DNA of 64,000 nucleotides from a bacterium (GCA_021371935.1 JAJFVF010000019.1:87268-151267); one strand, 5' to 3'; positions 3,269 through 56,229 are shown, counted from the first letter of the stretch. Translations and numbers: made by a program. The notes: generated from the sequence alone by a model not told the origin.

Positions 3269-3316
3269 CCTGTCGTACAGAGTCAATATCAAATACAAAA
3301 TCTATGATTCGATGTT

Positions 3317-5090: not shown

Positions 5091-7301
5091 ATGGCCGATA
5101 TCGATTCTATAATCAGCAAGGTGTTGGAATATAATGACGCGGCGGATACGGATCTGATCCGCCGTGCATACGAGTTCGCATCTGTCGCTCATAAAGATCA
5201 GCTCCGCGAGACCGGTGACCCCTACATCACTCATCCTCTGGCGACCGCCGAGATTCTGACAGATCTCGAGATGGACACAGCCAGCATCGCGGCTGCTCTG
5301 CTCCATGACGTGGTCGAAGACCAAGACTATTCGATTGACGACATAAAGGATAAATTCGGTTCCGAGATAGCAGCGCTGGTCGACGGCGTCACCAAGTTGA
5401 AACTGGCCGATTTTGACGTTATGGATGATGCGCAGGAGCGCCAGGAGGTTCCGAAGAAGCGCCGTGCCGAGTTCAAGCGAAGCGCTGAGAACCTACGCAA
5501 AATATTCCTTGCCATGGCGCGCGATCTGCGTGTTATGGTCATCAAACTTGCCGACCGGCTGCACAATATGCGGACCCTGAGCGGTCTGCCTGAGGACCGT
5601 CAGAAGAAGGTGTCGCAGGAGACGATGCAGATATACGCTCCTCTTGCGCACAGGCTGGGTATCTGGAAGATCAAATGGGAGCTTGAGGACCTGGCGTTCA
5701 AGTATATTGAGCCGGAGGCCTATGCAAAGGTTGCGGATAAGGTCTCAGGCACGCGCGGCGACCGTGAGGACGACCTGGCCGAGGCCGTTGAGATGATCCA
5801 GAGACATCTGACCAAGGACGGCATTGATGCCACGATCCAGGCAAGGCCGAAGCATCTCTGGAGCATATATCAAAAGATGCTTCGTGAGGAAGTTGATTTC
5901 TCGGAGATATACGACCTTTCGGCAATCCGGGTTATCGTGAACAGGGTAGGCGAGTGCTATCATGCGCTGGGTCTGGTCCATGACCTTTGGATGCCGATCC
6001 CCGAGAGGTTTTCGGATTACATTGCAAAGCCCAAGTCGAACATGTATCAATCGCTGCACACCAAGGTGATCGGACCGAGGGGTGAGCCTTTGGAGGTGCA
6101 GATAAGGACCTGGGATATGCACAGGGTCGCTGACTTCGGTGTAGCTGCTCACTGGCAGTATAAGGAGCGTATGCGGTCGGGCGACGAGTTCGAGCGCAAA
6201 CTTTCGTGGCTGCGCCAGCAGCTCTTCGACTGGCAGTCCGACAGCAAGGATGCAGGTGAGTTCCTGCACTCGGTGATCAACGATCTGTTTACCGACCAGG
6301 TGTTTGTATTTACTCCACGGGGGGACGTTATTGACCTGCCGGCAGGCTCTACTCCAGTGGATTTCGCATATAGGATCCACAGCGATGTAGGCAACCACTG
6401 CGTCGGCGGCAAAGTAAACGGCCGGATCGTGCCTCTGACGTATAAGTTCAACAACGGCGACATAGTCGAGGTCATAACCCGGTCGAATGCACAGCCCAGC
6501 CTAGACTGGTTGGCATTTGTCAAAACTTCTCATGCCCGCAATCGTATAAAGGGTTTTTATAGGCGGGCACATTATGCCGAGTCTGTCACCAAAGGCCGCG
6601 AGATGCTCGACCGCGAGCTTGAGAAACTTGGTCATGAGCCCAAGGAACTGATAAAGGTCAGTGACATCACGGCAGTAGCCAAGGCGCTGAATTTGCAGAC
6701 TGAGGACGACCTGTATGCCGCGATAGGCTATGGCCATGTCGCGCTGGGCAGTGTGGTCAACAAGCTGAAAATACCTGAGCCGCCCAAGTCTGAGGCGCTG
6801 GTGATAGAGGCTCCCAAGTCCACTGGCAAGAGCAAACTCGCCGTCACCCTCGATGGGGTGAAAAACCTCATGATAACCCGGGCAAAGTGCTGCGCGCCGC
6901 TTCCGGGTGAGGAAGTTGTCGGCTATGTCTCCCGGGGTAAAGGCGTATCTCTGCATTCTGTGACATGCCCGAATGTCGCGGCCTATAGGGCGAGTGAGCC
7001 TGAGCGTCTGGTCGATATCAACTGGACCGAGGCCGATGGCGAGCGATATCCCACAAATATTGCGATACATGCCCTGAACCGCATGGGTCTGCTCAGTGAG
7101 ATTACGGCTATGTTTTCTGAGTCCAAGACAAACATAACTGGCGCCAAGGTCAAGACTATGCCTGACAAGACGGCGACAATCGATCTTACGGTCGATCTGC
7201 CGAATGTTCATGCGCTAAATGACCTTATGATCAAGGTCGGCAGCCTTTCCGATGTGCTCAAGATCGAGCGTGTGGCCGCCCACAGGTCAAAAAAAATTTG
7301 A
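5091..7301 (+). CDS. rel: Bifunctional (p)ppGpp synthetase/hydrolase RelA/SpoT
   Basis: HD hydrolase domain (HDVVED), synthetase domain, TGS and ACT C-terminal regions. Start placed at MADIDSII, after the recJ stop. Confidence 0.85.
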   Translation: MADIDSIISKVLEYNDAADTDLIRRAYEFASVAHKDQLRETGDPYITHPLATAEILTDLEMDTASIAAALLHDVVEDQDYSIDDIKDKFGSEIAALVDGVTKLKLADFDVMDDAQERQEVPKKRRAEFKRSAENLRKIFLAMARDLRVMVIKLADRLHNMRTLSGLPEDRQKKVSQETMQIYAPLAHRLGIWKIKWELEDLAFKYIEPEAYAKVADKVSGTRGDREDDLAEAVEMIQRHLTKDGIDATIQARPKHLWSIYQKMLREEVDFSEIYDLSAIRVIVNRVGECYHALGLVHDLWMPIPERFSDYIAKPKSNMYQSLHTKVIGPRGEPLEVQIRTWDMHRVADFGVAAHWQYKERMRSGDEFERKLSWLRQQLFDWQSDSKDAGEFLHSVINDLFTDQVFVFTPRGDVIDLPAGSTPVDFAYRIHSDVGNHCVGGKVNGRIVPLTYKFNNGDIVEVITRSNAQPSLDWLAFVKTSHARNRIKGFYRRAHYAESVTKGREMLDRELEKLGHEPKELIKVSDITAVAKALNLQTEDDLYAAIGYGHVALGSVVNKLKIPEPPKSEALVIEAPKSTGKSKLAVTLDGVKNLMITRAKCCAPLPGEEVVGYVSRGKGVSLHSVTCPNVAAYRASEPERLVDINWTEADGERYPTNIAIHALNRMGLLSEITAMFSESKTNITGAKVKTMPDKTATIDLTVDLPNVHALNDLMIKVGSLSDVLKIERVAAHRSKKI

Positions 7302-7626
7302 TATTTTATATTTTGTATTGATTATTTTGATCGGATCAACGAGCAAAAAGGCGTCTCAATTCCAGTCATTCCGAGCGAAGTCGAGGAATCTGCTGTGAGC
7401 CATTCTTTGTTATTTTGGCAATCGTGACAGGTGTTGTGCGCTTGATCGTCTGGGGTATCTCTCCCCGGACGCACATTAGGAGGAATATTTCCTCCATAAC
7501 CTTCGGTATATGGAGAATCTTGTTCCCGATATGTACTGTTCATTTCGGATATGGATTCCCGAAACATCAGATAGTGCCTATGAATTGTTGCCAGGCGAAC
7601 TGGGGCCAACATCGTGAGGAATAGAA

Positions 7627-10878: not shown

Positions 10879-12999
10879 ATGATAAGAGTCTCGCCAATTC
10901 TGCTTTGCGCTCTGGCCATCTGGATGTCTGTTTCCACATACGCTGCGCCGGAGAGGTCCGGGCCAAATGCAGACACACAATACGTTCCAAAATGGGGTTA
11001 TATTGACAGGACCGGCAATGTCGTAATCAAGTCGCAATTCGATGATGTGAGGATGTTTGTCGACGGATTGGCGCCGGTAGCGGTCGGCAGTTCGGAGAAA
11101 CGCAAGTGGGGTTATGTGGACAAGACCGGCAAGCTGGTCATTAAGCCGCAGTATGGTGACGCAGCGGAGTTCTCCGAAGGACTGGCGGCAGTACGGATCG
11201 GTGATGATGAAATGGACAAATGGGTCTATATCGATAAGTCGGGCAATATTGTCCTTAGACCGGACAAGCAGTTTTCCGGCAGCTTCCATGATGGTCTAGC
11301 TCTGATTGCCGATAACGGTTTTGGAAGTGGCAGTGATTGTATAACATACGGGGCAAGCGGTTATATCGACAAGACCGGCAAAGAGATCATAAAGCTGCAG
11401 TATGGGGGAGCAGACAGTTTCAGTGAAGGGCTTGCGGCGGTCTGGATAGGTCTTTACGCAGGCAAATGGGGCTATATCGACACCAGCGGCAAAGTTGAGA
11501 TAGACCCGGTGTTTGGCATTGCCCGCCCGTTCTCAGAAGGGCTGGCTTGTGTGCGGCTGGCGGATGATGCCGAGACATGGGGTTATATAGACAAGACCGG
11601 AAAGCTTGTAATCCGGCGGACGGAGACAAACACGCGATTCGACAGCAGTTGTGATTTCCATGATGGGCTTGCGATTGTGCGTAAAGATGACAGCTTCCGG
11701 GGTGGCGTAGGCTACATAGACAGGACCGGTAAGATCGCAATCAAGCAGCAGTATGATGATGCCGGCAGTTTTTCGGAGGGGTTGGCGCCCGTCGAAAAGG
11801 ATGCGTGCTGGGGTTTCATAGATGTGAATGGAGACTATGTCATCAAGTCGCTTGGTTTTGGCATCGACGCAAAGGGCTTCTCGGATGGACTTGCACCAAT
11901 TGGAATCCCGCATTCCGTGCCGAATCGAGCTGCGTATATCGACAAGAGCGGAAAGATGGTCTCAAAGCCGGGGATCACAAAAGTCGGCGTTGCATCCGAG
12001 GGTCTTGCGCCATTTAGAACCGGTGATAATGAGACCGGCAAATGGGGTTTTGCGGATATGGAAGGAAATGTCATCATTGAGCCCCAGTTCGATATCGTCG
12101 GACAGTTTTCCGGGGGGTTGGCAGTAGTCGCGACAGGAAAAGACACTTCATTCGGGTTCGGCTCCAAACAGACGGATATAAAGAGCGCGGACATGCCCAA
12201 ATACGGCTTTATTGACAAGACAGGCAAGATAGTAGTTGAGCTGAAATACCAGAGCGTTGGCAGCTTTTGCGAAGGCCTTGCGATGGTGATGAATTCCGAC
12301 GGCATAAAGATGGATAGCAACGGGTGCATGGACTGGGATAGTCCAAAGTATGGCTATGTGGACAAGACAGGCAGTCTTGCAATCGGACAGAAGTTCAGTT
12401 GGGCGTCAGACTTCTGTGAAGGTCGCGCCAATGTCAGTATTGGAGACGATGATGCAACTGGCTATATCGATTTGAATGGAAATATGGTTATCAAGCCGAA
12501 GTTTAATCATGTTAGGGACTTCTCCGATGGTCTGGCGGCAGTGAAGAGCGGAGCAAAATGGGGCTATATAGACAAGTCCGGCAAAGTCGTCATCAAACCA
12601 CAATTCGATGAGGTCGGCGACTTCTCCGAAGGCCTTGCACGCATCCGTATTGGCGATAACGAGAAAGCTAAGTGGGGTTACGTATCAAAGGCCGGTAAAG
12701 TGGTGGTCAAACCGAGATTCGGTGAAGCAGGTGACTTTTCCGAGGGGCTTGCCAGGGTTAGGGTCGGTCCCAACTATAACGACAAGTGGGGCTACATCGA
12801 CAAGACAGGCAAGATGACAATCAAGCCGCAGTTTCAGGAGGTCTCCAACTTTTTTGAGGGCATGGCGGCTGTTCAGTCCAACTACCGTTATGGCTACATA
12901 GACAAGACCGGCAAGTTCCTTATGAAACCACAATATAATGGTGCGGGCGACTTCTCGGGAGGCATAGCGGGTGTAGAGTGGTCGTCAAGGGGGTTTTAA
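10879..12999 (+). CDS. Secreted WG-repeat protein (about 18 repeats, signal peptide)
   Basis: N-terminal signal peptide, then iterated KWGYIDKTGKxVIKPQFD...FSEGLA units (WG-containing repeat). Confidence 0.8.
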   Translation: MIRVSPILLCALAIWMSVSTYAAPERSGPNADTQYVPKWGYIDRTGNVVIKSQFDDVRMFVDGLAPVAVGSSEKRKWGYVDKTGKLVIKPQYGDAAEFSEGLAAVRIGDDEMDKWVYIDKSGNIVLRPDKQFSGSFHDGLALIADNGFGSGSDCITYGASGYIDKTGKEIIKLQYGGADSFSEGLAAVWIGLYAGKWGYIDTSGKVEIDPVFGIARPFSEGLACVRLADDAETWGYIDKTGKLVIRRTETNTRFDSSCDFHDGLAIVRKDDSFRGGVGYIDRTGKIAIKQQYDDAGSFSEGLAPVEKDACWGFIDVNGDYVIKSLGFGIDAKGFSDGLAPIGIPHSVPNRAAYIDKSGKMVSKPGITKVGVASEGLAPFRTGDNETGKWGFADMEGNVIIEPQFDIVGQFSGGLAVVATGKDTSFGFGSKQTDIKSADMPKYGFIDKTGKIVVELKYQSVGSFCEGLAMVMNSDGIKMDSNGCMDWDSPKYGYVDKTGSLAIGQKFSWASDFCEGRANVSIGDDDATGYIDLNGNMVIKPKFNHVRDFSDGLAAVKSGAKWGYIDKSGKVVIKPQFDEVGDFSEGLARIRIGDNEKAKWGYVSKAGKVVVKPRFGEAGDFSEGLARVRVGPNYNDKWGYIDKTGKMTIKPQFQEVSNFFEGMAAVQSNYRYGYIDKTGKFLMKPQYNGAGDFSGGIAGVEWSSRGF

Positions 13000-13000
13000 A

Positions 13001-14152
13001 ATGAATAAACTGCGATCAGTCATTGGGTTGACACTATTCTTGCTTTCCTGCAGCGCTTTGAGCGCCTCATCCGCGCAGGTCCTGCTTCCCGTCAAACATG
13101 GCGACAAGTGGGGCTACATCAACAAGTCAGGGCAAATAGTTATAAAAGCTGTCTATGATGCGGCTGGAATGTTCGCAGAGGGGCTGGCTCCAGTGGGAAA
13201 AGGCAAGAATGACGCGATGAAATACGGCTATATAAACACCTCCGGCAAGATGATCATCAAACCACAGTTCAACAGCACGAGCGGTTTTCGTGAGGGGATG
13301 GCATCGGTGACCATGAAAGAACAGATCGGCTTCATCGATAAGACCGGCAAGCTGGTGATAAAGCCTCAATTTTCCTTTGCGGATGACTTCCATGAGGGTC
13401 TGACCCCAGTGTGCACAGGGACGCCGAGGACTGCGAAGTACGGCTACATAAACAAAACCGGGAAGATGGTCGTCAGCAAAAAGTTTGACTCAGCAGGCAA
13501 TTTTTCGCAAGGCCTTGCGCCTGTAGCCGTCGGCGATAAATGGGGCTACATCGATAAAACCGGCAAAATGATTATAGATATGCAGTTTGACGAGGCAAAC
13601 AGTTTCTCTGAGGGCTTGGCCGTAGTGTCGACAGGCAGGGTCTATTACAAGTCAGAGAAAACCGGCAAGGTTGATGAGAGCATAATCATGCAAGAGGGCA
13701 AGTGCGGATATATCGACAAAACCGGCAAGATTGTCATCGAACCGCGCTTCGGCTACGCCCAACCATTTTCGGATGGTCTTGCTGCTGTTATGACAGGCGA
13801 GATGAAGCCGGGGCGGAAATGGACGTGGGGATATATCGATAAGGCAGGCAAGTTTGTGATAGAGCCGAAGTTTCCTTTCGCCGAGAGTTTTTCTGAGGGA
13901 GTCGCGGCAGTGTGTGTCGGAGACTTCTCCATACCCTCCAAAGACATAAACGACTTTCCGAAATGGGGTTACATCGATAAAACCGGAAAAATGGTCATCA
14001 CGCCTCAGTTTTTAGGGATGCACCAAGGCAGCTTTTCAGGAGGCGCAGCGATGGTCAGTATGCAGTTTCTTTTTTCACCTGACAGCCATGCGGGTCCAAG
14101 CTACATAGACAAGACAGGCAAGTTCATTTGGAAAGACAGGAATACGCGCTGA
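13001..14152 (+). CDS. Secreted WG-repeat protein, paralog of the upstream gene
   Basis: Signal peptide plus the same KWGYI..KTGK..I.PQF repeat. Separated from the upstream paralog by 1 nt. Confidence 0.8.
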   Translation: MNKLRSVIGLTLFLLSCSALSASSAQVLLPVKHGDKWGYINKSGQIVIKAVYDAAGMFAEGLAPVGKGKNDAMKYGYINTSGKMIIKPQFNSTSGFREGMASVTMKEQIGFIDKTGKLVIKPQFSFADDFHEGLTPVCTGTPRTAKYGYINKTGKMVVSKKFDSAGNFSQGLAPVAVGDKWGYIDKTGKMIIDMQFDEANSFSEGLAVVSTGRVYYKSEKTGKVDESIIMQEGKCGYIDKTGKIVIEPRFGYAQPFSDGLAAVMTGEMKPGRKWTWGYIDKAGKFVIEPKFPFAESFSEGVAAVCVGDFSIPSKDINDFPKWGYIDKTGKMVITPQFLGMHQGSFSGGAAMVSMQFLFSPDSHAGPSYIDKTGKFIWKDRNTR

Positions 14153-15400: not shown

Positions 15401-15473
15401 TAAGAGTGTTCAATAATTTCAAGCAGCTATCGGCTCAGCAGGAGCTTTACCGTCTCAATTACGATCGTATGTG

Positions 15474-17347: not shown

Positions 17348-17622
17348 CTAGGCGGCTTACTGCAAGATTTGTCAGATTATAGCATCCTTACGGACACATT
17401 ACAATACCCTTTCAATTTAATATTTGAGATTTTTTATTTTATATTTGGCGAACTGGGTGAGGGGTTATTCGTCAATATTTCCACGTTCGGCATGCCGCTC
17501 TTGCTGACGCTCGATCTTGCGTCTGCGCTTGTGCATAGCTTTTTTATCAGGCTCGTGCGGTCCTGCCTTTAGAAAGTGGGCTTTTTGTGCAAAGAAAGAT
17601 TTTCCGGGTATTCTACGGCGCA

Positions 17623-25259: not shown

Positions 25260-26324
25260 ATGGAATTAAAGGAAATAGCTGCAAAAGCGGCGCAGTCAGG
25301 CGCCTCTGACATATTTCTGAAAGTCGGCTCGCCGCCGATGATGCGTCTCAACAGCGTTGTGGTCCCGCTCGATTCATATCCTGAACTGAAGGGTCAGGAC
25401 ACTGAAGCGCTTGCATACGGCATAATGACGCACGAGCAGATCGGTCGTTTCGAGCGCAGACATGAACTCGACCTCGCGTTTACAATAGACGATGTCGCAA
25501 GGTTCAGGGCGAATGTATATTACCAGCGCGGCACAATCGGCATGGTGCTGCGCATTGTGCCTCTCCAGATTCTTGGATTGAATGAGCTTGGCCTACCGGA
25601 GGGTATCAAGTCTCTTGCCGAGCAGAGGCAGGGACTTGTGCTTGTGACGGGTCCAACCGGCTGCGGTAAGTCCACGACCCTTGCTGCGGTGATTGACATC
25701 ATCAACTCCACTCGCAAGTGCAATATCATCACTGTCGAGGACCCGATTGAGTTCGTGCATCAGGACAAGCAGTCAATCGTCAGCCAGCGCGAGATCGGCA
25801 TCGATACCGATTCGTTCACCGATGCGCTCAAATATGTCGTCAGGCAGAGCCCGGACGTGATCCTGGTCGGCGAGATGCGTGATGTAGAGACTATGAACGT
25901 TGCTCTGGCAGCAGCGGAGACGGGTCACCTCGTATTTTCGACAGTCCACACATGCAGCGCTGCAGAGACGCTCGATAGAATAATGAATATGTTTCCTCCT
26001 CATGACAAACTGATGGTGTGTATGCGTCTGTCTGTATCACTGAAGGGTGTAGTTTCTCAAAAACTGATTCCGAGGATGGATAAAACCGGGCGGATAGCAG
26101 CCGTAGAAGTAATGATTGCAAACCCGACTATAAGCAAGCTGCTTGAGGAAGGGCGTTCATCACAAATATACCAGGCCATTTCCGAGGGTGAATATTGGGG
26201 TATGCAGACTATGAACCAGTGTCTTGACCGCTATTGCAAGGCCGGAATCATATCTGAAGATGAGGCTCTTGCAAGCGCTGGCAACTACACCGAACTCAAG
26301 CAGATGCTCCGACGAGCCCTCTGA
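25260..26324 (+). CDS. pilT: Type IV pilus twitching-motility ATPase PilT
   Basis: Walker A GPTGCGKST, and Asp box/His box of the PilT/GspE family. GAGGAAG Shine-Dalgarno. Confidence 0.8.
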   Translation: MELKEIAAKAAQSGASDIFLKVGSPPMMRLNSVVVPLDSYPELKGQDTEALAYGIMTHEQIGRFERRHELDLAFTIDDVARFRANVYYQRGTIGMVLRIVPLQILGLNELGLPEGIKSLAEQRQGLVLVTGPTGCGKSTTLAAVIDIINSTRKCNIITVEDPIEFVHQDKQSIVSQREIGIDTDSFTDALKYVVRQSPDVILVGEMRDVETMNVALAAAETGHLVFSTVHTCSAAETLDRIMNMFPPHDKLMVCMRLSVSLKGVVSQKLIPRMDKTGRIAAVEVMIANPTISKLLEEGRSSQIYQAISEGEYWGMQTMNQCLDRYCKAGIISEDEALASAGNYTELKQMLRRAL

Positions 26325-26325
26325 T

Positions 26326-26357
26326 TTAGTATTGAGTATATTGTATTGATTATTTGT
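26326..26357 (+). repeat. AT-rich post-stop motif TTTAGTATTGAGTATATTGTATTGATTATTTG
   Basis: Immediately after the pilT stop. Near-identical 35-mer after ilvN at 48985-49017. Related copy after rel at 7291-7325. Confidence 0.55.
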
Positions 26358-28591: not shown

Positions 28592-28701
28592 AAGCTTACT
28601 CTCATTCTCTATCTTTTGCCGAAGACTGATAGCCGGGCATATTTCTGCCCCCGGACGATCCGAGCGTATCTTACTCAGCGATTGCACGACTAGCTCATTT
28701 A

Positions 28702-35801: not shown

Positions 35802-36035
35802 TCAATATCTGGAACCAACGCACCCAAAGTCGAGCCCATAATCCTGAAACCCGAGTGCATGGGCTGTGTGCAGTGATGCAATATTTGTGCGGTCCGCACC
35901 CCAGGTGGCTATTTTGCCGTTATCGAGGATGTATTTCACTGCTGCCGATACGGCGCTTTTTGCATATCCCATGCCTCGATATTCAGGCAGTGTCTGGATA
36001 GTAGGGTCCCATACGACATCAGACAGCGGCTTCAC
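35802..36035 (-). pseudogene. Truncated duplicate of the 3' end of the GNAT-like gene at 37067-37777
   Basis: The 77 aa align with the C-terminal 77 aa of the 236-aa protein at about 90 percent identity. The underlying DNA at 35822-36050 matches 37090-37320. No N-terminal part is present. Confidence 0.7.
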
Positions 36036-36221
36036 GCCCGCCTACGAGACCGGTTCGCCCGCATAGTTAGCAAGTCTCTTTCGCATGTGTGACACATTCA
36101 GCTCAACGGAGCCACAGTGTTGACATTATCCCGGTATAAATAACAGTTGCCAAGTGTTCAAGCTGATGTTATATTGTACAACTGGAAGTGTATGCTTGCC
36201 GGATGGGAAGGGAGAGAGATT

Positions 36222-37069: not shown

Positions 37070-37777
37070 ACCACACTGTATGCAGACGCACCCGAAGTCA
37101 AGCCCATAATCCTGAAACCCGAGTGCATGAGCCGTGCGCAGTGATGCGATATTGGTACGGTCCGCGCCCCAGGTGGCTATTTTGCCGTTATCGAGGATGT
37201 ATTTCACTGCTGCCGATACGGCGCTTTTTGCATGTCCCATGCCTCGATATTCCGAGAGAGTCTGCACCGTCAGGTCCCAGCCGACACCAGACAGTGGCTT
37301 CACTCCTGCCCACGAGACCACTCTGCCGTCCAAAATCTGACCGAATACCCTGCCTCCCCATTTGTTGTAGATACCGACAGCAATTTCGTCCATGTCGGTC
37401 ACATCGCGCACGTCGCCATTTGTCTGGTCAACAAAAGTTTCTCTGTCACAGTAGAGTCTGCACCCCTCGAACCAGAACTCAGGCTGTATGACAGGCGTCA
37501 ATGCAGCCTCAAGTGCCCGAGATGCATTTTCGTCAAGTGTTTTTGAGCCGATCAGCGCATTAGCGGCCGCTTCGTATAGATCGGGCAATACTGACACCAC
37601 CGCTCCAGTCCCTTTGCCTATCGAAAAGAGCGCAAGCGGCGCGCCCTTTGCGAACCTTATTCCGGTAATCTTTTCGCATTTGACGACCACCAGCCTGCCC
37701 GAGTTGAGATCATCCGGTGTGCATCCCAGTGCGGACGAGTAAAATTTGTCCAGTTGCATCACTGTATCGTTTGCCAT
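37067..37777 (-). CDS. GNAT-like acetyltransferase-fold protein (C-terminal domain)
   Basis: C-terminal GNAT-like motif EYRGMGHAKSAVSAAVKYILDNG. Last gene of the 37067-42102 operon. Confidence 0.55.
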   Translation of the reverse strand: MANDTVMQLDKFYSSALGCTPDDLNSGRLVVVKCEKITGIRFAKGAPLALFSIGKGTGAVVSVLPDLYEAAANALIGSKTLDENASRALEAALTPVIQPEFWFEGCRLYCDRETFVDQTNGDVRDVTDMDEIAVGIYNKWGGRVFGQILDGRVVSWAGVKPLSGVGWDLTVQTLSEYRGMGHAKSAVSAAVKYILDNGKIATWGADRTNIASLRTAHALGFQDYGLDFGCVCIQCG

Positions 37778-48480: not shown

Positions 48481-48984
48481 ATGAAACAACCAATGCAACA
48501 TACAATAACCGTGCTGGTTGAAAACAAGCCTGGTGTGCTCGCCAGGGTATCGGGTTTGTTTGCTCGGCGCGGGTTTAACATCGAATCACTGGCCGTCAGC
48601 ATCACCGACGACCCGACCATTTCGCGTATGTCGATCGTAGTGACGGGTGACGATGCCACACTAGATCAGATCAACAAACAGACTGACAAACTGATCGACG
48701 TAATCAAAGTTATAGACTACAGCGAGATACCGATAGTTGAGCGCGAGCTTGCGATGATAAAGGTCAATGCTGAGAACTCGCAGCGTGCAGAGATTATGCA
48801 GATAGTCGATATTTTCCATGCGAAGATCATCGATATAAGCAAGGTCACGTTTACGATAGAGGTGACGGGCAACACTGACAAGGTCGATGCAATTGAGCGG
48901 CTTTTGGAACCGTTCGGAATCAAGGAAATGGTCCGAACGGGCATGATCGCGATGGCTCGCGGCTCGATCACAGCAGCAAGCTGA
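48481..48984 (+). CDS. ilvN: Acetolactate synthase small (regulatory) subunit
   Basis: N-terminal ACT domain (ITVLVENKPGVLARVSGLFARRGFNIESL). Confidence 0.85.
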   Translation: MKQPMQHTITVLVENKPGVLARVSGLFARRGFNIESLAVSITDDPTISRMSIVVTGDDATLDQINKQTDKLIDVIKVIDYSEIPIVERELAMIKVNAENSQRAEIMQIVDIFHAKIIDISKVTFTIEVTGNTDKVDAIERLLEPFGIKEMVRTGMIAMARGSITAAS

Positions 48985-49017
48985 TTTAGTATTTAGTAAT
49001 TTGTATTGATTATTGTT
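48985..49017 (+). repeat. AT-rich post-stop motif TTTAGTATTTAGTAATTTGTATTGATTATTGTT
   Basis: Immediately after the ilvN stop. Confidence 0.55.
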
Positions 49018-49115
49018 TTAGGATGTCTGACATATTTTTTGAGAGGAAATAGAAGGAATCAGGCCGGAGATTATCCAACCTCAAACCTCTATCCTCTAAA
49101 ACAGGAGGAATATAC

Positions 49116-50233: not shown

Positions 50234-50692
50234 ATGCCGGATATGGACGCAGGATCGGTTGCACTGAAGCATTTTAGTGAAAGGTTCAACTGTGCCGAAT
50301 CTACTTTATTGGGAGTGACGGAAGCGTGTGGCATTGAGAGTGACTGTGCTCCTCGTATAGTGAGCGGATTTGGCGGTGGTGTCGGCGGATGCGGCGAGGT
50401 ATGTGGTGCTCTGACCGGCTCGATTATGGCTCTCGGTCTGAAATTCGGAAGAGAGCGAGGCGATGATGTCGAGACCAAGAGCGCGCTCTACAAAAAGGTA
50501 CAGAAATTTTTGGACTCGTTTGAAAAAGAATTTGGCAGTGCGCGCTGCATAGACCTTACTGAATGTGATATGCGCACTTCCGAGGGCAGGCAAAAAGCCA
50601 AAGAGCTTGATCTCCATGGTGGTCTTTGCCGAAAGTTCGTTGAGTTTGCAGCAAATGAGGCCGCGAGACTGATAGCCCAAAGCAATAAATAG
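50234..50692 (+). CDS. C_GCAxxG_C_C family putative redox-active protein
   Basis: CAESTLL...GGGVGGCGEVCGALTG...C...C pattern. Inserted within the ilv-leu operon. Confidence 0.6.
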   Translation: MPDMDAGSVALKHFSERFNCAESTLLGVTEACGIESDCAPRIVSGFGGGVGGCGEVCGALTGSIMALGLKFGRERGDDVETKSALYKKVQKFLDSFEKEFGSARCIDLTECDMRTSEGRQKAKELDLHGGLCRKFVEFAANEAARLIAQSNK

Positions 50693-50753
50693 CAACACTC
50701 AATATCAATACTCAATACCAAATCTCAAATATAAAATCAGTTGAGGTGTCAAG

Positions 50754-52310
50754 GTGGCAAGACGAATACAAATTTTTGATACGACGCTGCGCGACGGCGA
50801 GCAGTCACCCGGCGCGAGTATGAATATCGAGGAGAAGCTGGGGGTTGCAAAGCAGCTAGCGCGTCTAAAGGTGGATGTTATAGAAGCGGGCTTTCCGATT
50901 TCGAGCCAGGGCGATTTCGATGCCGTGAAGGCTATTGCCGAGACGATCAAGGGTCCGGCGATTGCAGGGCTTTGCCGCGCCGGAAAGATGGACATAGACC
51001 GTGCCTGGGAAGCTCTCAAGTTCACCAAGAAGCCGGTTATTCACACGTTTATTGCCACGTCCGACATCCATCTTGAAAAGAAGCTCAAAAAGACACGCGA
51101 CGAGGTGCTCGATATAGCTGTTATGGCCGTGAGGCATGCAAAGGGCTACTGCGAAGATGTCGAGTTTTCAGCCGAGGATGCGGCACGTTCCGATTTCGAT
51201 TATCTATGCCAGGTTGTCGAGGCCGTGATCGATGCGGGCGCGACTGTCGTGAACATACCTGACACTGTCGGCTATGCCATCCCGAGCGAGTATGGAGCAA
51301 TGATCGGCAGGTTGATAGAGCGTGTACCCAACTCAAATAAAGCGATTTTCAGTGTTCACTGTCACAATGACCTCGGCCTTGCCACGGCGAACTCTCTGGC
51401 AGCGGTCGCCAACGGCGCAGGTCAGATCGAGTGCACGATCAATGGCATAGGCGAGCGAGCGGGTAATGCTGCTCTTGAAGAGGTCGTGATGGCTCTCAAC
51501 ACACGTCCCGACCTGTTTGGTGCCAAAACCGGCATCAACACGACCGAGATATACCGTGCCAGCAGGATGGTCAGCGATGTGACGGGTCTTTCGGTCCAGG
51601 TCAATAAAGCGATTGTCGGCGCGAATGCGTTTGCCCATGAGGCTGGGATTCATCAGCACGGCGTGTTGCAGGAGAAGCGAACGTACGAGATTATGGATGC
51701 GGAGTCGATAGGTCTTGCCTCAAACAAGCTGGTTTTGGGCAAGCACTCCGGCAGACATGCTTTCGAGGGCAAGCTGAAGTCACTGGGTTTCAGCCTGAGC
51801 AAAGTTGAGCTCGACAAGGCATTCGAGCGGTTCAAGGCATTGGCGGACAAAAAGAAAGAGATATTTGACGAGGACTTGGAGACGATTGTTGCGGACGAGG
51901 TATATGTGATTCCGTCGAAGTATCAGCTCGTCTATATGAATGTGATGACCAGTCTTCACGGCATCCCTACGGCAACGATCCGCCTCAAGACTGACGAGAC
52001 CGAAATTGTGGAGGCATGCGTAGGTGTAGGGTCTGTCGATGCGGTTTACAAGACGATCGATAAGATGGTCGATGCGCAATATCATTTGGTGGATTTCAAT
52101 ATTAAGTCTGTTACGGGCGGCACCGATGCTCTTGGCGAAGTCACGGTCAAGCTCGGAGCTATGAACGGCGAGGTATATACGGGCCGCGGGGCGTCGTTGG
52201 ATATAGTCGAGGCGAGCGCAAAGGCATATCTGAATGCAGTAAACAAACTCGTTTATTACGAAGAGAAACGCGGCAATGGCGGCAAACCCAAAGACAAAGC
52301 AATCCTCTAA
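50754..52310 (+). CDS. leuA: 2-isopropylmalate synthase
   Basis: [21 protein letters not shown] and C-terminal LeuA dimerisation/regulatory domain. GTG start 5 nt after GAGGTG. Confidence 0.85.
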
Positions 52311-53078
52311 TTTTATATTTGGGATTTTATATTGAGTATTTCAAATACAGCTTGTTGATGGGTGGCGATCTCCGAATCGCCACCCGAGTGCCAGTTGGGA
52401 TCTCCGAATCCCGAAAACGTAGGAACAACGAATGTCGCATCGATTCAAAGTTGTGCGAGGCGGACCATACCCGCATTTCGTGACATTGACGATTGTGCGC
52501 TGGTATCCCGTTTTCATTTCTGGTTCGTATTTTCGAATCATACTAGACAGCATAAAGCACTTAAGGGAGAGTCGTGGACTGCTGATACATGCCTATGTGA
52601 TAATGCCGACGCATGTGCATGCTATTATCACGGCCACAAATGATGATTTGTCTGCGATAGTCAGAGATTTCAAGCGTTTTACGGCTCGTAGCATAGAGAA
52701 CCAAGCTGATGGTGATGGTAATAGGTTGCTATGCTGGATATTTAGGAACAGCAATAAAGACGAGCGTGCTCAGTCAAAAGTATGGCAGGATGAATTCCAT
52801 CCTGAGGTTATATATACACGTGATCGTTTTATGCAAAAGGCGAATTATATTCATGACAATCCGATCCGCAAGGGCTTGGCGAAGATGGCGGATCATTATT
52901 ACTATTCAAGTTTTATGGCTTTTGATCGTGCTGAAATGGATCCAATAGATATTGACTGGCTTGAATGGTAACATCCGATAGCTTTGCGGATTCAGAGATC
53001 CGCTCTGGCTTTAGGTTGACGATTCGGAGATCGTCAACCAGCCTTTGATTTTATATTAGGATTTTATATTGAGTATTG
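52311..53078 (+). mobile_element. RAYT unit: 30-bp AT-rich direct repeats, inverted REP hairpins, REP-associated tyrosine transposase gene
   Basis: Left end TTTTATATTTGGGATTTTATATTGAGTATT. Right end TGATTTTATATTAGGATTTTATATTGAGTATT. Hairpins GGGTGGCGATCTCCGAATCGCCACCC and TTGGGATCTCCGAATCCC on the left. GCGGATTCAGAGATCCGC and GGTTGACGATTCGGAGATCGTCAACC on the right, with the core in reverse complement. Confidence 0.7.
52432..52971 (+). CDS. REP-associated tyrosine transposase (IS200/IS605-like TnpA, RAYT)
   Basis: HAYVIMPTHVHAII (HxH motif), a downstream conserved Tyr region, and size 179 aa. AGGAACAACGAATG Shine-Dalgarno. Confidence 0.75.
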   Translation: MSHRFKVVRGGPYPHFVTLTIVRWYPVFISGSYFRIILDSIKHLRESRGLLIHAYVIMPTHVHAIITATNDDLSAIVRDFKRFTARSIENQADGDGNRLLCWIFRNSNKDERAQSKVWQDEFHPEVIYTRDRFMQKANYIHDNPIRKGLAKMADHYYYSSFMAFDRAEMDPIDIDWLEW

Positions 53079-53474
53079 AATCTGATGGTTGATAGGGCAA
53101 GGGCAGTCATTATCGAAGACTCTAGGGTGCTCCTGATGCACCGCTGCAAGTCCGGGCGAGAGTATTATTCATTTCCGGGCGGCGGAATAGAGCCTGGTGA
53201 AAGTCCTGAGCAGGCTTGTATTCGCGAGGTCCTTGAGGAGACAGGCCTTGATGTCGAGATAGTGTCATGCCTGGCTGAAAATGATTTCAATGGTCAGAAT
53301 GAGTCTTTCTATCTGGTCAAAAAGCTCTCCGGCGAGGTAAGGCTCGGTGGTCCAGAACTAGACAGATTGAGCGATGATAATCTTTACGAGCCTATGTGGG
53401 TTCCGATAGACCGTATGGCTGAGTTGCCGGTATTTCCGAAGCATGTGGCCGAAATGGTTGCAATGCATATTTGA
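53076..53474 (+). CDS. NUDIX hydrolase
   Basis: Nudix box GGGIEPGESPEQACIREVLEETG. Start is either TTG at 53076 or ATG at 53085. Confidence 0.75.
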   Translation: MNLMVDRARAVIIEDSRVLLMHRCKSGREYYSFPGGGIEPGESPEQACIREVLEETGLDVEIVSCLAENDFNGQNESFYLVKKLSGEVRLGGPELDRLSDDNLYEPMWVPIDRMAELPVFPKHVAEMVAMHI

Positions 53475-53516
53475 TTTACTGCAGTTATCCTGCCAAGGAG
53501 AAAGGGAGTCTGTGCA

Positions 53517-53963
53517 ATGCCAAGTCGACTAAAGATCACGGTAGTGTGTTTCAACATCAGTGCGGTTCTCTCGATTGTGTGTGGGATTATTATGTTTATA
53601 TTCGGCATAAGGTCCGATCCAACATTCATCATACACTGTAGTGGACAGCCGGGTGTCCAACTGCATCATACTTTTCCATTATTTGGTGCTTTCCATGTCG
53701 CGGCAATCGTCGGAGGTCTTTTGTTGATCTTCGTGGCAGCGCCGCTGATCAGGCATATTGCTCTTGCTCTCACAGGTTTGAGATATTGGGCATGGCTAAC
53801 CGGGCTTATATTATCCGGCCTGATGATATTCAATGGGTGGCATGCGCCATATGTGTTTACGGTTCTTGGCGGGCTTTCGCTTTGGGGACTTCTGGATAAG
53901 GAGACCCTGGAGGCGTTTTTGCATAGACCGACTAATGACCGTCAACCGACAACTGAAAACTGA
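53517..53963 (+). CDS. Hypothetical membrane protein (4 TM)
   Basis: Hydrophobicity pattern only. Confidence 0.45.
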   Translation: MPSRLKITVVCFNISAVLSIVCGIIMFIFGIRSDPTFIIHCSGQPGVQLHHTFPLFGAFHVAAIVGGLLLIFVAAPLIRHIALALTGLRYWAWLTGLILSGLMIFNGWHAPYVFTVLGGLSLWGLLDKETLEAFLHRPTNDRQPTTEN

Positions 53964-53972
53964 GGTTAATAT

Positions 53973-55830: not shown

Positions 55831-56229
55831 ATGGGCTTAGTTCGTGAAGACACGCAATACCCGATGTCAGAACTTACAGCGAAAATTATCGCCTGTGCCA
55901 TAGAAGTTCACAAGACATTGGGTCCCGGCTTTGAGGAGGTGTTTTATCAGCGTGCCCTGCTCAAGGAGCTTATTGCTGCGGGTCTGGAGGCTGAGCGTGA
56001 GGTATGGATAGAGGTTCGCTACAAGGATATTGTTCTCGGAAAGAAGCGCGTCGATTTTGTTGTTGAAGACTGTCTTGTAGAGATTAAGGCCAAATCATCG
56101 CTTGAGGACGTTGATATTGTTCAGACATTATCATATTTGAAAGTATCCTGTTATCCTGTAGCATTGTTGATAAACTTCGGCGGTCCGAAGATTGAGATAA
56201 AACGTCTCGCAAACACAATTAAGCGTTGA
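55831..56229 (+). CDS. GxxExxY family protein
   Basis: GFEEVFY motif and ~130-aa size typical of the family. Inserted between leuD and leuB. Confidence 0.6.
   Translation: MGLVREDTQYPMSELTAKIIACAIEVHKTLGPGFEEVFYQRALLKELIAAGLEAEREVWIEVRYKDIVLGKKRVDFVVEDCLVEIKAKSSLEDVDIVQTLSYLKVSCYPVALLINFGGPKIEIKRLANTIKR

Follow-up and report, generated by a model that had tools for sequence, protein, structure and literature searches.

The DNA analysed here (the window) is a 64,000-nt stretch of a bacterial contig (GCA_021371935.1, JAJFVF010000019.1:87268-151267) from the genome of an uncultured member of the Armatimonadota; the nearest relatives of its LeuA protein are annotated as Armatimonadetes or Armatimonadota. 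It encodes a co-oriented operon, ilvB-ilvN-ilvC-leuA-...-leuC-leuD-leuB, in which a gene for a REP (repetitive extragenic palindrome)-associated tyrosine transposase (RAYT) and its flanking hairpins are lodged between leuA (50754-52310) and a gene of the NUDIX family (53085-53474; 74.6 bits). We interpret this unit, with a probability of roughly 0.8, as a REPtron, namely a RAYT gene bracketed by inverted cognate REPs. Its features, including the two copies of a direct repeat (DR1 and DR2) that enclose it, are the following:

52304-52340, plus strand: DR1, comprising CCTCTAA (the end of leuA including its stop codon) and a 30-nt AT-rich host spacer.
52341-52355, plus strand: 15-nt junction, TCAAATACAGCTTGT, the first 10 nt of which are common to the relative L206 (TCAAATCCAG).
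52356-52385, plus strand: left large REP hairpin, with TGAT (52356-52359) followed by the stem-loop GGGTGGCGAT-CTCCGA-ATCGCCACCC (52360-52385).
52397-52412, plus strand: left small REP hairpin, GGGAT-CTCCGA-ATCCC.
52432-52971, plus strand: RAYT (TnpA-REP) gene of 179 aa, a HUH-Y1 endonuclease (H61, H63, Y139).
52986-53003, minus strand: right small REP hairpin, inverted, GCGGAT-TCAGAG-ATCCGC.
53014-53039, minus strand: right large REP hairpin, inverted, GGTTGACGAT-TCGGAG-ATCGTCAACC.
53042-53077, plus strand: DR2, comprising CCTTTGA and a 29-nt AT-rich spacer, which ends 7 nt before the NUDIX ATG (53085).

The product of the central gene is a HUH-Y1 REP-associated tyrosine transposase by its catalytic residues, its match to the RAYT model and its RAYT-like predicted fold. 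It scores 104.3 bits against the equivalog-level NCBIfam model NF047646 (REP_Tyr_transpos; cut-off 80) and fails the IS200 transposase model NF033573 (transpos_IS200; 19.9 bits, cut-off 55), while barely exceeding the threshold of the general Y1_Tnp family in Pfam (26.2 bits, threshold 23). The two histidines of the HUH motif (HVH; H61 and H63), Y139, which lies within the sequence YIHDNP, N143 and P144 are invariant across 27 aligned homologues. The AlphaFold model of the protein (pLDDT 89.6) finds its top fold match in the Protein Data Bank (PDB) in 4er8_A, the Escherichia coli RAYT with its REP hairpin (TM-scores 0.67/0.72 over 178 columns), with the ISDra2, IS200 and IS608 transposases ranking behind it; 4er8 is also the best PDB match by sequence (E = 9.5e-7). 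These results uphold the original prediction, a description made from the sequence alone, which had proposed a 179-aa RAYT-like transposase with an HxH...Y arrangement.

NCBI lists the exact protein under the accessions MCE5324226.1 and MEN6613716.1; it is labelled "transposase [bacterium]" and is encoded by a contig of 314 kb. A RAYT profile scan of the genome collection recovered distant RAYTs only, at 44% identity or less, and the nearest matches in this collection include many Bacteroidota RAYTs at 31-39% identity. Judged by its motifs and not by a tree, the protein can tentatively be assigned to subclass 2.6 in the RAYT classification by Quentin et al. 2018, the equivalent of Bertels group 5 and mostly found in Bacteroidetes (PMC6006769, PMC5581495). 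It resembles the members of this subclass in its length of 179 aa and in its WQ and YIHxNP motifs. The subclass is described as having the motifs NH[LIV]H, WQ and YIH[QN]NP and as being flanked by "atypical secondary structures" (PMC6006769); the HUH motif here differs from this in reading THVH, and the host belongs to the Armatimonadota. A plasmid or phage origin was considered and rejected: close relatives on plasmids were not found, the plasmid matches being no more than 36% identical, a single match to the hairpin was obtained among 2.9 million viral contigs, and a comparison with the PHROGs returned only a weak match, to a PHROG of unknown function.

Each flank of the gene consists of two hairpins, one with a 10-bp and one with a 5-6-bp stem, and their order downstream mirrors that upstream. 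The flanks thereby form 58-nt inverted arms that are 78% complementary, with the hairpin pair 32 nt apart on both sides, and folding of the flanks as single-stranded DNA yields exactly these hairpins (z = -2.4 and -5.8 relative to shuffled sequences). The left large hairpin, with a 10-bp stem and a 6-nt loop, agrees with the family consensus described below, and the left small hairpin has the same loop and the same apical GAT/ATC pairs. On the right, the large hairpin is a compensated variant, in which two stem pairs are altered on both sides with respect to the consensus, and the loop of the small hairpin is one mismatch removed from the family loop CTCCGA, making it the sole mismatched loop among the four. 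The 14-mer CGATCTCCGAATCG, allowing up to two mismatches, is found at only three places in the 64 kb, all of them in the RAYT flanks. A search of 52200-53200 for known RNA families returned none at E <= 1.

To place these hairpins in a wider context, RAYTs from relatives (55-74% identical) were retrieved together with their flanks (loci L082, L083, L084, L208, L214 and L215), and two further loci (L128 and L136) were obtained through a scan with the hairpin. The arrangement is preserved in L082, L083, L084, L128, L136, L208 and L214: a large hairpin and, about 14 nt further on, a small one precede the RAYT, and a small and then a large hairpin follow it. L215 has large hairpins only around its RAYT. 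The hairpins themselves are near-uniform in sequence, being GGGTGGCGAT-YTCCGA-ATCGCCACCC and (C)GGGAT-YTCCGA-ATCCC(G) (the hairpin of this RAYT family is also written GATYTCCGAATC), and even the asymmetry of the small hairpins, with a GGGAT-type on the left and a CCGGAT-type on the right, is kept in relatives. Common to the large and small hairpins is the apex GAT-YTCCGA-ATC, whose loop and three apical pairs never vary among 28 distinct large hairpins. The rest of the stem shows a different behaviour: in the same 28 hairpins, seven of the ten stem pairs display changes on both sides, and 96.4% of the cells are paired, compared with 81.6% after shuffling and 36-49% when the partners were slid; the percentage paired is inflated by the preselection of rows with at least 8 of 10 pairs. 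The 5' flank of the large hairpins is (T)GAT in 72 of 146 cases and xxCT in others, with GTAG being absent. RAYTs that are only 41-44% identical (L004 from Armatimonadetes and L002 from Planctomycetota) are flanked by quite different hairpins, as co-evolution of RAYTs with their REPs would predict (PMC2817692).

The hairpin is also widely dispersed apart from the gene. Its 22-nt core (GTGGCGATYTCCGAATCGCCAC) is present in at least 120 metagenome stretches, and a RAYT is nearby in only five of the first 80 of these listed. Among the matches listed, the RAYT-free clusters fall into 56 singlets, 28 doublets of like orientation, 18 inverted pairs, which are REPIN-like, and 6 four-hairpin units, which resemble the REPtron minus its gene. 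L083 has a gene-free copy of the hairpin 3.6 kb from its RAYT. Many of the matches lie at contig ends, and L001, which represents the organism of the window, begins exactly at the left large hairpin. Contig breaks of this kind are typical assembly behaviour at repeats and hint, without amounting to proof, that the hairpin is repeated in the source organism. Together with the layout kept in relatives, this dispersal agrees with the original prediction of inverted REP hairpins.

These data also bear on whether the unit might be an autonomous insertion sequence (IS) of the IS200/IS605 type, with the hairpins as its ends and moving as a whole. Such an element could account for the presence or absence of the unit at the leuA-NUDIX site among close relatives (see below), for the differing contexts of RAYTs that are 72-74% identical (one between argB and argD in L082 and another ahead of leuC in L128, among further cases) and for the match to the general Y1_Tnp family. 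We consider it very unlikely, given that the protein passes the RAYT model and falls far short of the IS200 model, that the RAYT structure 4ER8 is its best fold match, and that the flanks are inverted copies of each other, which is a signature of RAYTs (PMC2817692). Further, gene-free hairpins far outnumber gene-linked ones, the window has a single copy, with no second RAYT in its 64 kb, and the plasmid and viral searches above returned neither close plasmid relatives nor more than one viral hairpin match.

A comparison with characterized systems shows both common features and peculiarities of the locus. The E. coli REPtron (YafM with its REP/BIME elements, 4ER8; Bertels group 2, Quentin subclass 2.2) has the same HUH-Y1 core, and its monomer-type fold is the best match of the model; in both, the gene is flanked by inverted cognate REPs and REPs are dispersed without the gene. 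In contrast, the RAYT here is only about 20% identical to that of E. coli, and its REPs have neither the GTAG tetranucleotide nor the stem bulge; their loop and three apical pairs are invariant and common to two hairpin sizes. As in the REPINs of Pseudomonas fluorescens with group 3 RAYTs (PMC3116915), gene-free inverted REP doublets are found (the inverted pairs and four-hairpin units enumerated above), but many copies here are singlets or same-orientation doublets of a large and a small hairpin, and their density appears low. The IS200/IS605 elements (IS608, ISDra2) likewise combine a HUH-Y1 transposase with subterminal hairpins in single-stranded DNA, and provide the second-best fold matches. 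The present unit departs from them in failing the IS200 model, in its mutually inverted flanks, in the dispersal of gene-free hairpins and in the 37-bp duplication at this locus, since those elements are reported to produce no larger target duplications (PMC2817692).

The site between leuA and the NUDIX gene could be compared directly in close relatives, as had been proposed along with the original prediction. In L205 (LeuA 91% and LeuC 95.7% identical), the TAA of leuA is followed by a single 37-nt AT-rich spacer and the NUDIX ATG, and there is no RAYT. By comparison with L205, the window has an additional 0.7 kb at this site, namely the unit, and host spacer lies on both sides of it; the placement within the operon that had been proposed is thus borne out by the coordinates and by the absence of the unit at the same site in this relative. 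No RAYT gene was found in the leuA-leuC interval of L207, L216 or L217-220, and in L207 a degenerate REP remnant alone is present there. In L206, represented by 1936 bp, the DR1-like spacer is followed by the same 10 nt as in the window, TCAAATCCAG, and then by a different REP-like element. An all-against-all search for filled and empty REP sites recovered the leuA-NUDIX site as its only clean pair.

The direct repeats themselves had been described as 30 bp long and as either a duplicated target or element termini. They are real but longer: DR1 and DR2 are identical at 33 of 37 positions (89%), beginning 4 nt before the leuA stop, and thereby contain CCTYTRA, which reaches into the last two codons and the stop of leuA. 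The 19-mer GGATTTTATATTGAGTATT occurs in exactly two copies in the window, with 0.00 expected by chance. The CCTTTGA of DR2 is the leuA end of L206 (LeuA 93%), from which the CCTCTAA at the leuA end of the window differs only synonymously; DR1 agrees with the leuA end of L206 in 33 of 37 positions and with the single L205 spacer in about 76%. DR2 together with GAATCTG constitutes the 36-nt spacer up to the NUDIX ATG, so that the native sequence upstream of the NUDIX gene is retained in DR2. By sequence comparison, the direct repeats are two copies of the host leuA-NUDIX spacer. The possibility that they are element termini was rejected, because they are absent from the other REPtrons of the family (L082, L083, L084, L128, L136, L208, L214 and L215), leaving the duplicated target as the better of the two options. 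The simplest reading of the locus would accordingly be an insertion of about 0.7 kb with a target duplication of about 37 bp.

We weighed three other accounts of the repeats against this reading. The first is that they predate the element: an AT-rich spacer built of 14-nt units would have expanded in tandem, and the REPtron would have landed between the copies without any duplication. Each DR is indeed built of two 14-nt units, and similar AT-rich spacers (TATTGAKTATT) are found after the stop codons at 7286, 26322 and 48982 of the window, with a reversed one at 50690. Comparable AT-rich or heptad tracts also occur in relatives, and in L141, L168 and L200 the REP clusters lie inside host heptad-repeat tracts, where the similarity of the two sides needs no duplication. 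On the other hand, the DR includes the leuA-specific CCTYTRA, from which the true leuA copy differs synonymously, the insert is placed exactly where DR1 and DR2 meet, and the close relative L205 has a single copy of the spacer. Moreover, non-repetitive sequence is duplicated at REP clusters in L082, L157, L128, L197 and L129, and such duplications are enriched over controls (see below). We therefore regard a pre-existing repeat as rather unlikely.

A second, extremely unlikely account would make the direct repeats the att-like recombination sites of a cassette system, in which a separate recombinase moved the RAYT as cargo. The AT-rich motifs at several gene junctions of the operon and the small unrelated genes interleaved in it are what brings this to mind, but a recombinase gene is not found adjacent to the unit, L205 has AT-rich spacers at the same operon junctions as the window without cargo differences, the motifs are absent from the other REPtrons, and their sequences are only 61-78% alike between sites.

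AT-rich or heptad spacers at or after stop codons were recorded in the window at 7286-7333, 17398-17449, 26322-26357, 48982-49024 and 50690-50740 (reverse), and in relatives in L205 (3327-3389 and 4953-4990), L082 (9519-9560), L200 (1340-1366) and L168 (1045-1075 and 1230-1330). GC-richer versions, in the form of GAGTTGA and CAGTTAT tracts, are found in relatives, and REP clusters are often in or beside these spacers, which may serve as a translation or RNA-processing signal or as a protein-binding array.

The third account holds that the REPtron is ancestral at this site and was vertically inherited, L205 and others having lost it through recombination between the direct repeats. A deletion between 37-bp repeats would yield exactly the state of L205, RAYTs have been described as vertically inherited (PMC5581495), and both the family REPtron upstream of leuC in the outgroup L128 (LeuC 85%) and the degenerate REP remnant of L207 in the same interval would fit. 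Yet DR1 and DR2 are 89% identical, compared to 76% for the orthologous spacers of the window and L205, which implies that the duplication is younger than the split from L205, barring gene conversion. This scenario also entails at least three independent losses (in L205, L207 and L216/L217) as against two gains, the neighbours of the L128 REPtron differ, and the interval behaves as a hotspot in general, the genes that it holds being unrelated from lineage to lineage. For these reasons, we judge an ancestral REPtron to be unlikely.

The hotspot character of the leuA-leuC interval is apparent in its differing complements of small genes, the operon junction acting as a landing site. Its contents by lineage include the NUDIX gene, a 148-aa membrane protein, a 244/255-aa protein, an MNT/HEPN pair, an acetyltransferase, a URO-D protein and the REPtron, and it spans 52311-53972 in the window, 4959-5436 in L205, 7558-8781 in L207, 5558-8589 in L216, 2840-4699 in L217 and 1849-4159 in L128. 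The element that takes the place of the REPtron after the leuA spacer of L206 is a repeat, (T)CATTCCGARCGAAKYSRAGGAATCTGC, which was found at 1808-1846 of L206, at 7356-7394 of the window, in three copies in L179, at 9640-9676 of L205 and at 1348-1380 of L175. Further along the operon, between leuD and leuB, the window contains a gene of the PD-(D/E)XK_3 nuclease family (55831-56229; 112 bits), of which a 63-aa remnant lies at the same place in L207 (10658-10849).

We then asked how common flanking duplications are in this REP family. Each REP cluster was scored by how similar its two 90-nt flanks are to each other, with a threshold of at least 14. This threshold is reached at 6 of 109 REP clusters (about 5%) as opposed to 2 of 1090 random placements (0.2%); about 95% of the clusters have no flanking duplication. 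The duplications of non-repetitive sequence observed at other loci are:

L082, 9589-10493: 52 bp with the ribosome-binding site and ATG of argD, present left and right of a single REP; to the left of the REPtron there is a third copy, which is degraded.
L157: perfect duplication of 28 bp around a REP cluster.
L128, 4050-4159, minus strand: at least 25 bp around the left doublet, derived from the start region of the RAYT itself.
L197, 300-480: about 40 bp, including the ribosome-binding site and ATG of the neighbouring gene.
L129: 15-bp duplication around a REP cluster.
L198: 14-bp duplication around a REP cluster.
L085: 10-bp duplication around a REP cluster.

A tandem duplication of the RAYT 3' end together with REPs was also seen in L083 (10520-10700) and L004 (10480-10720). 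The duplication of adjoining unique sequence is, hence, recurrent in the REP family without being the rule. It is conceivable, if doubtful, that the REP units of this family, and even the whole REPtron, insert as units with long target duplications of variable length (about 10-54 bp), often taken from the start region of a neighbouring gene. Target duplications at REP or REPtron insertions are not described in the RAYT/REP papers PMC2817692, PMC3116915, PMC3686654 and PMC8266576.

Several points weigh against reading the locus as a REPtron that entered the spacer as a unit. The 5' GTAG that is canonical for the REPs of groups 2/3 is missing here; the GT[A/G]G tetranucleotide defines the REPs of those groups and not of every RAYT subclass (PMC6006769). 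There is no further copy of the cognate core GATCTCCGAATC in the 64-kb window, and the dispersal of gene-free hairpins is seen in the contigs of relatives rather than in the source genome. The hairpin appears sparse, since the other 63 kb of the window contain none and L083 has one in 20 kb, and the apparently low density in relatives makes the zero count in 63 kb weak evidence. The activity of the RAYT is itself a prediction. As to insertion, single-strand (HUH) transposition of the IS200/IS605 type is not known to produce target duplications (PMC2817692), and REPtrons, according to PMC6006769, do not seem to be mobile as units. The REPtron of the outgroup L128, whose contig stops before the gene upstream, and the remnant in L207 make an ancient presence with repeated loss possible, and the 14-nt periodicity of the spacer may reflect a tandem expansion that was already in place. 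How REPs spread and whether RAYT genes move are matters that the literature leaves unresolved (PMC8266576, PMC6006769).

With the locus taken as a REPtron, a mechanism can be proposed by analogy to the paradigm of the E. coli TnpA-REP and IS608 (PMC8266576). The RAYT would bind the hairpins when they are exposed in single-stranded DNA, for example on the lagging-strand template, reading the conserved loop and apical pairs. H61 and H63 would hold a metal ion, and the DNA would be cut near the foot of the hairpin through a phosphotyrosine link to Y139, after which the strands would be rejoined. By such cutting and rejoining, REP units could be multiplied or relocated. The gene probably shares the transcript of the operon through read-through, because it is co-oriented and no promoter or terminator signals above chance were detected at the unit. 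With less confidence, we propose that the whole unit or a founding copy may have entered the leuA-NUDIX spacer after the L205 lineage had split off, and that this entry may have duplicated a target of about 37 bp such that DR1 preserves the leuA stop and DR2 the upstream region of the NUDIX gene.

The suggestion that this RAYT is behind some of the other REP-like families of the window is not supported: the cognate core is found nowhere else in the 64 kb and the families are unrelated. At least four other intergenic hairpin families, each with its own stem and loop, are present, and none adjoins a RAYT in the window. These are D9 (at 28622, 31532, 38571, 40888 and 50169), D10 (at 15464, 24318, 26391, 36930 and 48384), D13/D17 (at 1, 17320, 22433 and 36994) and D14 (at 3313, 22341 and 62031). 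They, along with CATTCCGAGCGAAGTCGAGGAATC, were rejected as targets of the RAYT for want of a shared core and on account of their different stems and loops. They are almost absent from the more than 120 loci that bear the REP of the RAYT family. The centre of D14, CGAT-ATCYG-ATCG, has a loose likeness to the REP apex that could not be substantiated. Two repeats of other kinds were also observed in the window. One is a long coding tandem array at 10971-14134, whose roughly 20 units have a periodicity of some 102-114 nt and contain the DNA motif AAATGGGGCTATATCGACAAGACCGGCAAG; it encodes a KWGYIDKTGK-type repeat protein. The other is a 234-nt direct repeat, 89% identical, whose copies at 35818-36051 and 37086-37319 are 1268 nt apart.

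REPtrons are a known kind of locus, and none has been characterized from the Armatimonadota in the RAYT/REP literature consulted for comparison; the unusual detail here is the 37-bp copy of the spacer on each side. If the duplications are not a regular outcome, the locus amounts to a routine annotation of a RAYT with its REPs, with no disruption of the operon. It nevertheless contributes a REP/RAYT family that is well defined, from a phylum that has been little studied, with a clear recognition signature, in which the loop and three apical pairs are constant above a distal stem that varies by compensatory changes, and with a filled and an empty site at hand in close relatives. If insertion with target duplication is true of this family, its route would be unlike the duplication-free "peel and paste" of IS200/IS605 and could involve replication-coupled gap filling or template switching primed at the RAYT nick. 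Duplications that arise as a regular by-product of insertion would then provide a footprint for dating and counting the insertions of REPs and REPtrons, and would constrain the mechanism by which they occur.

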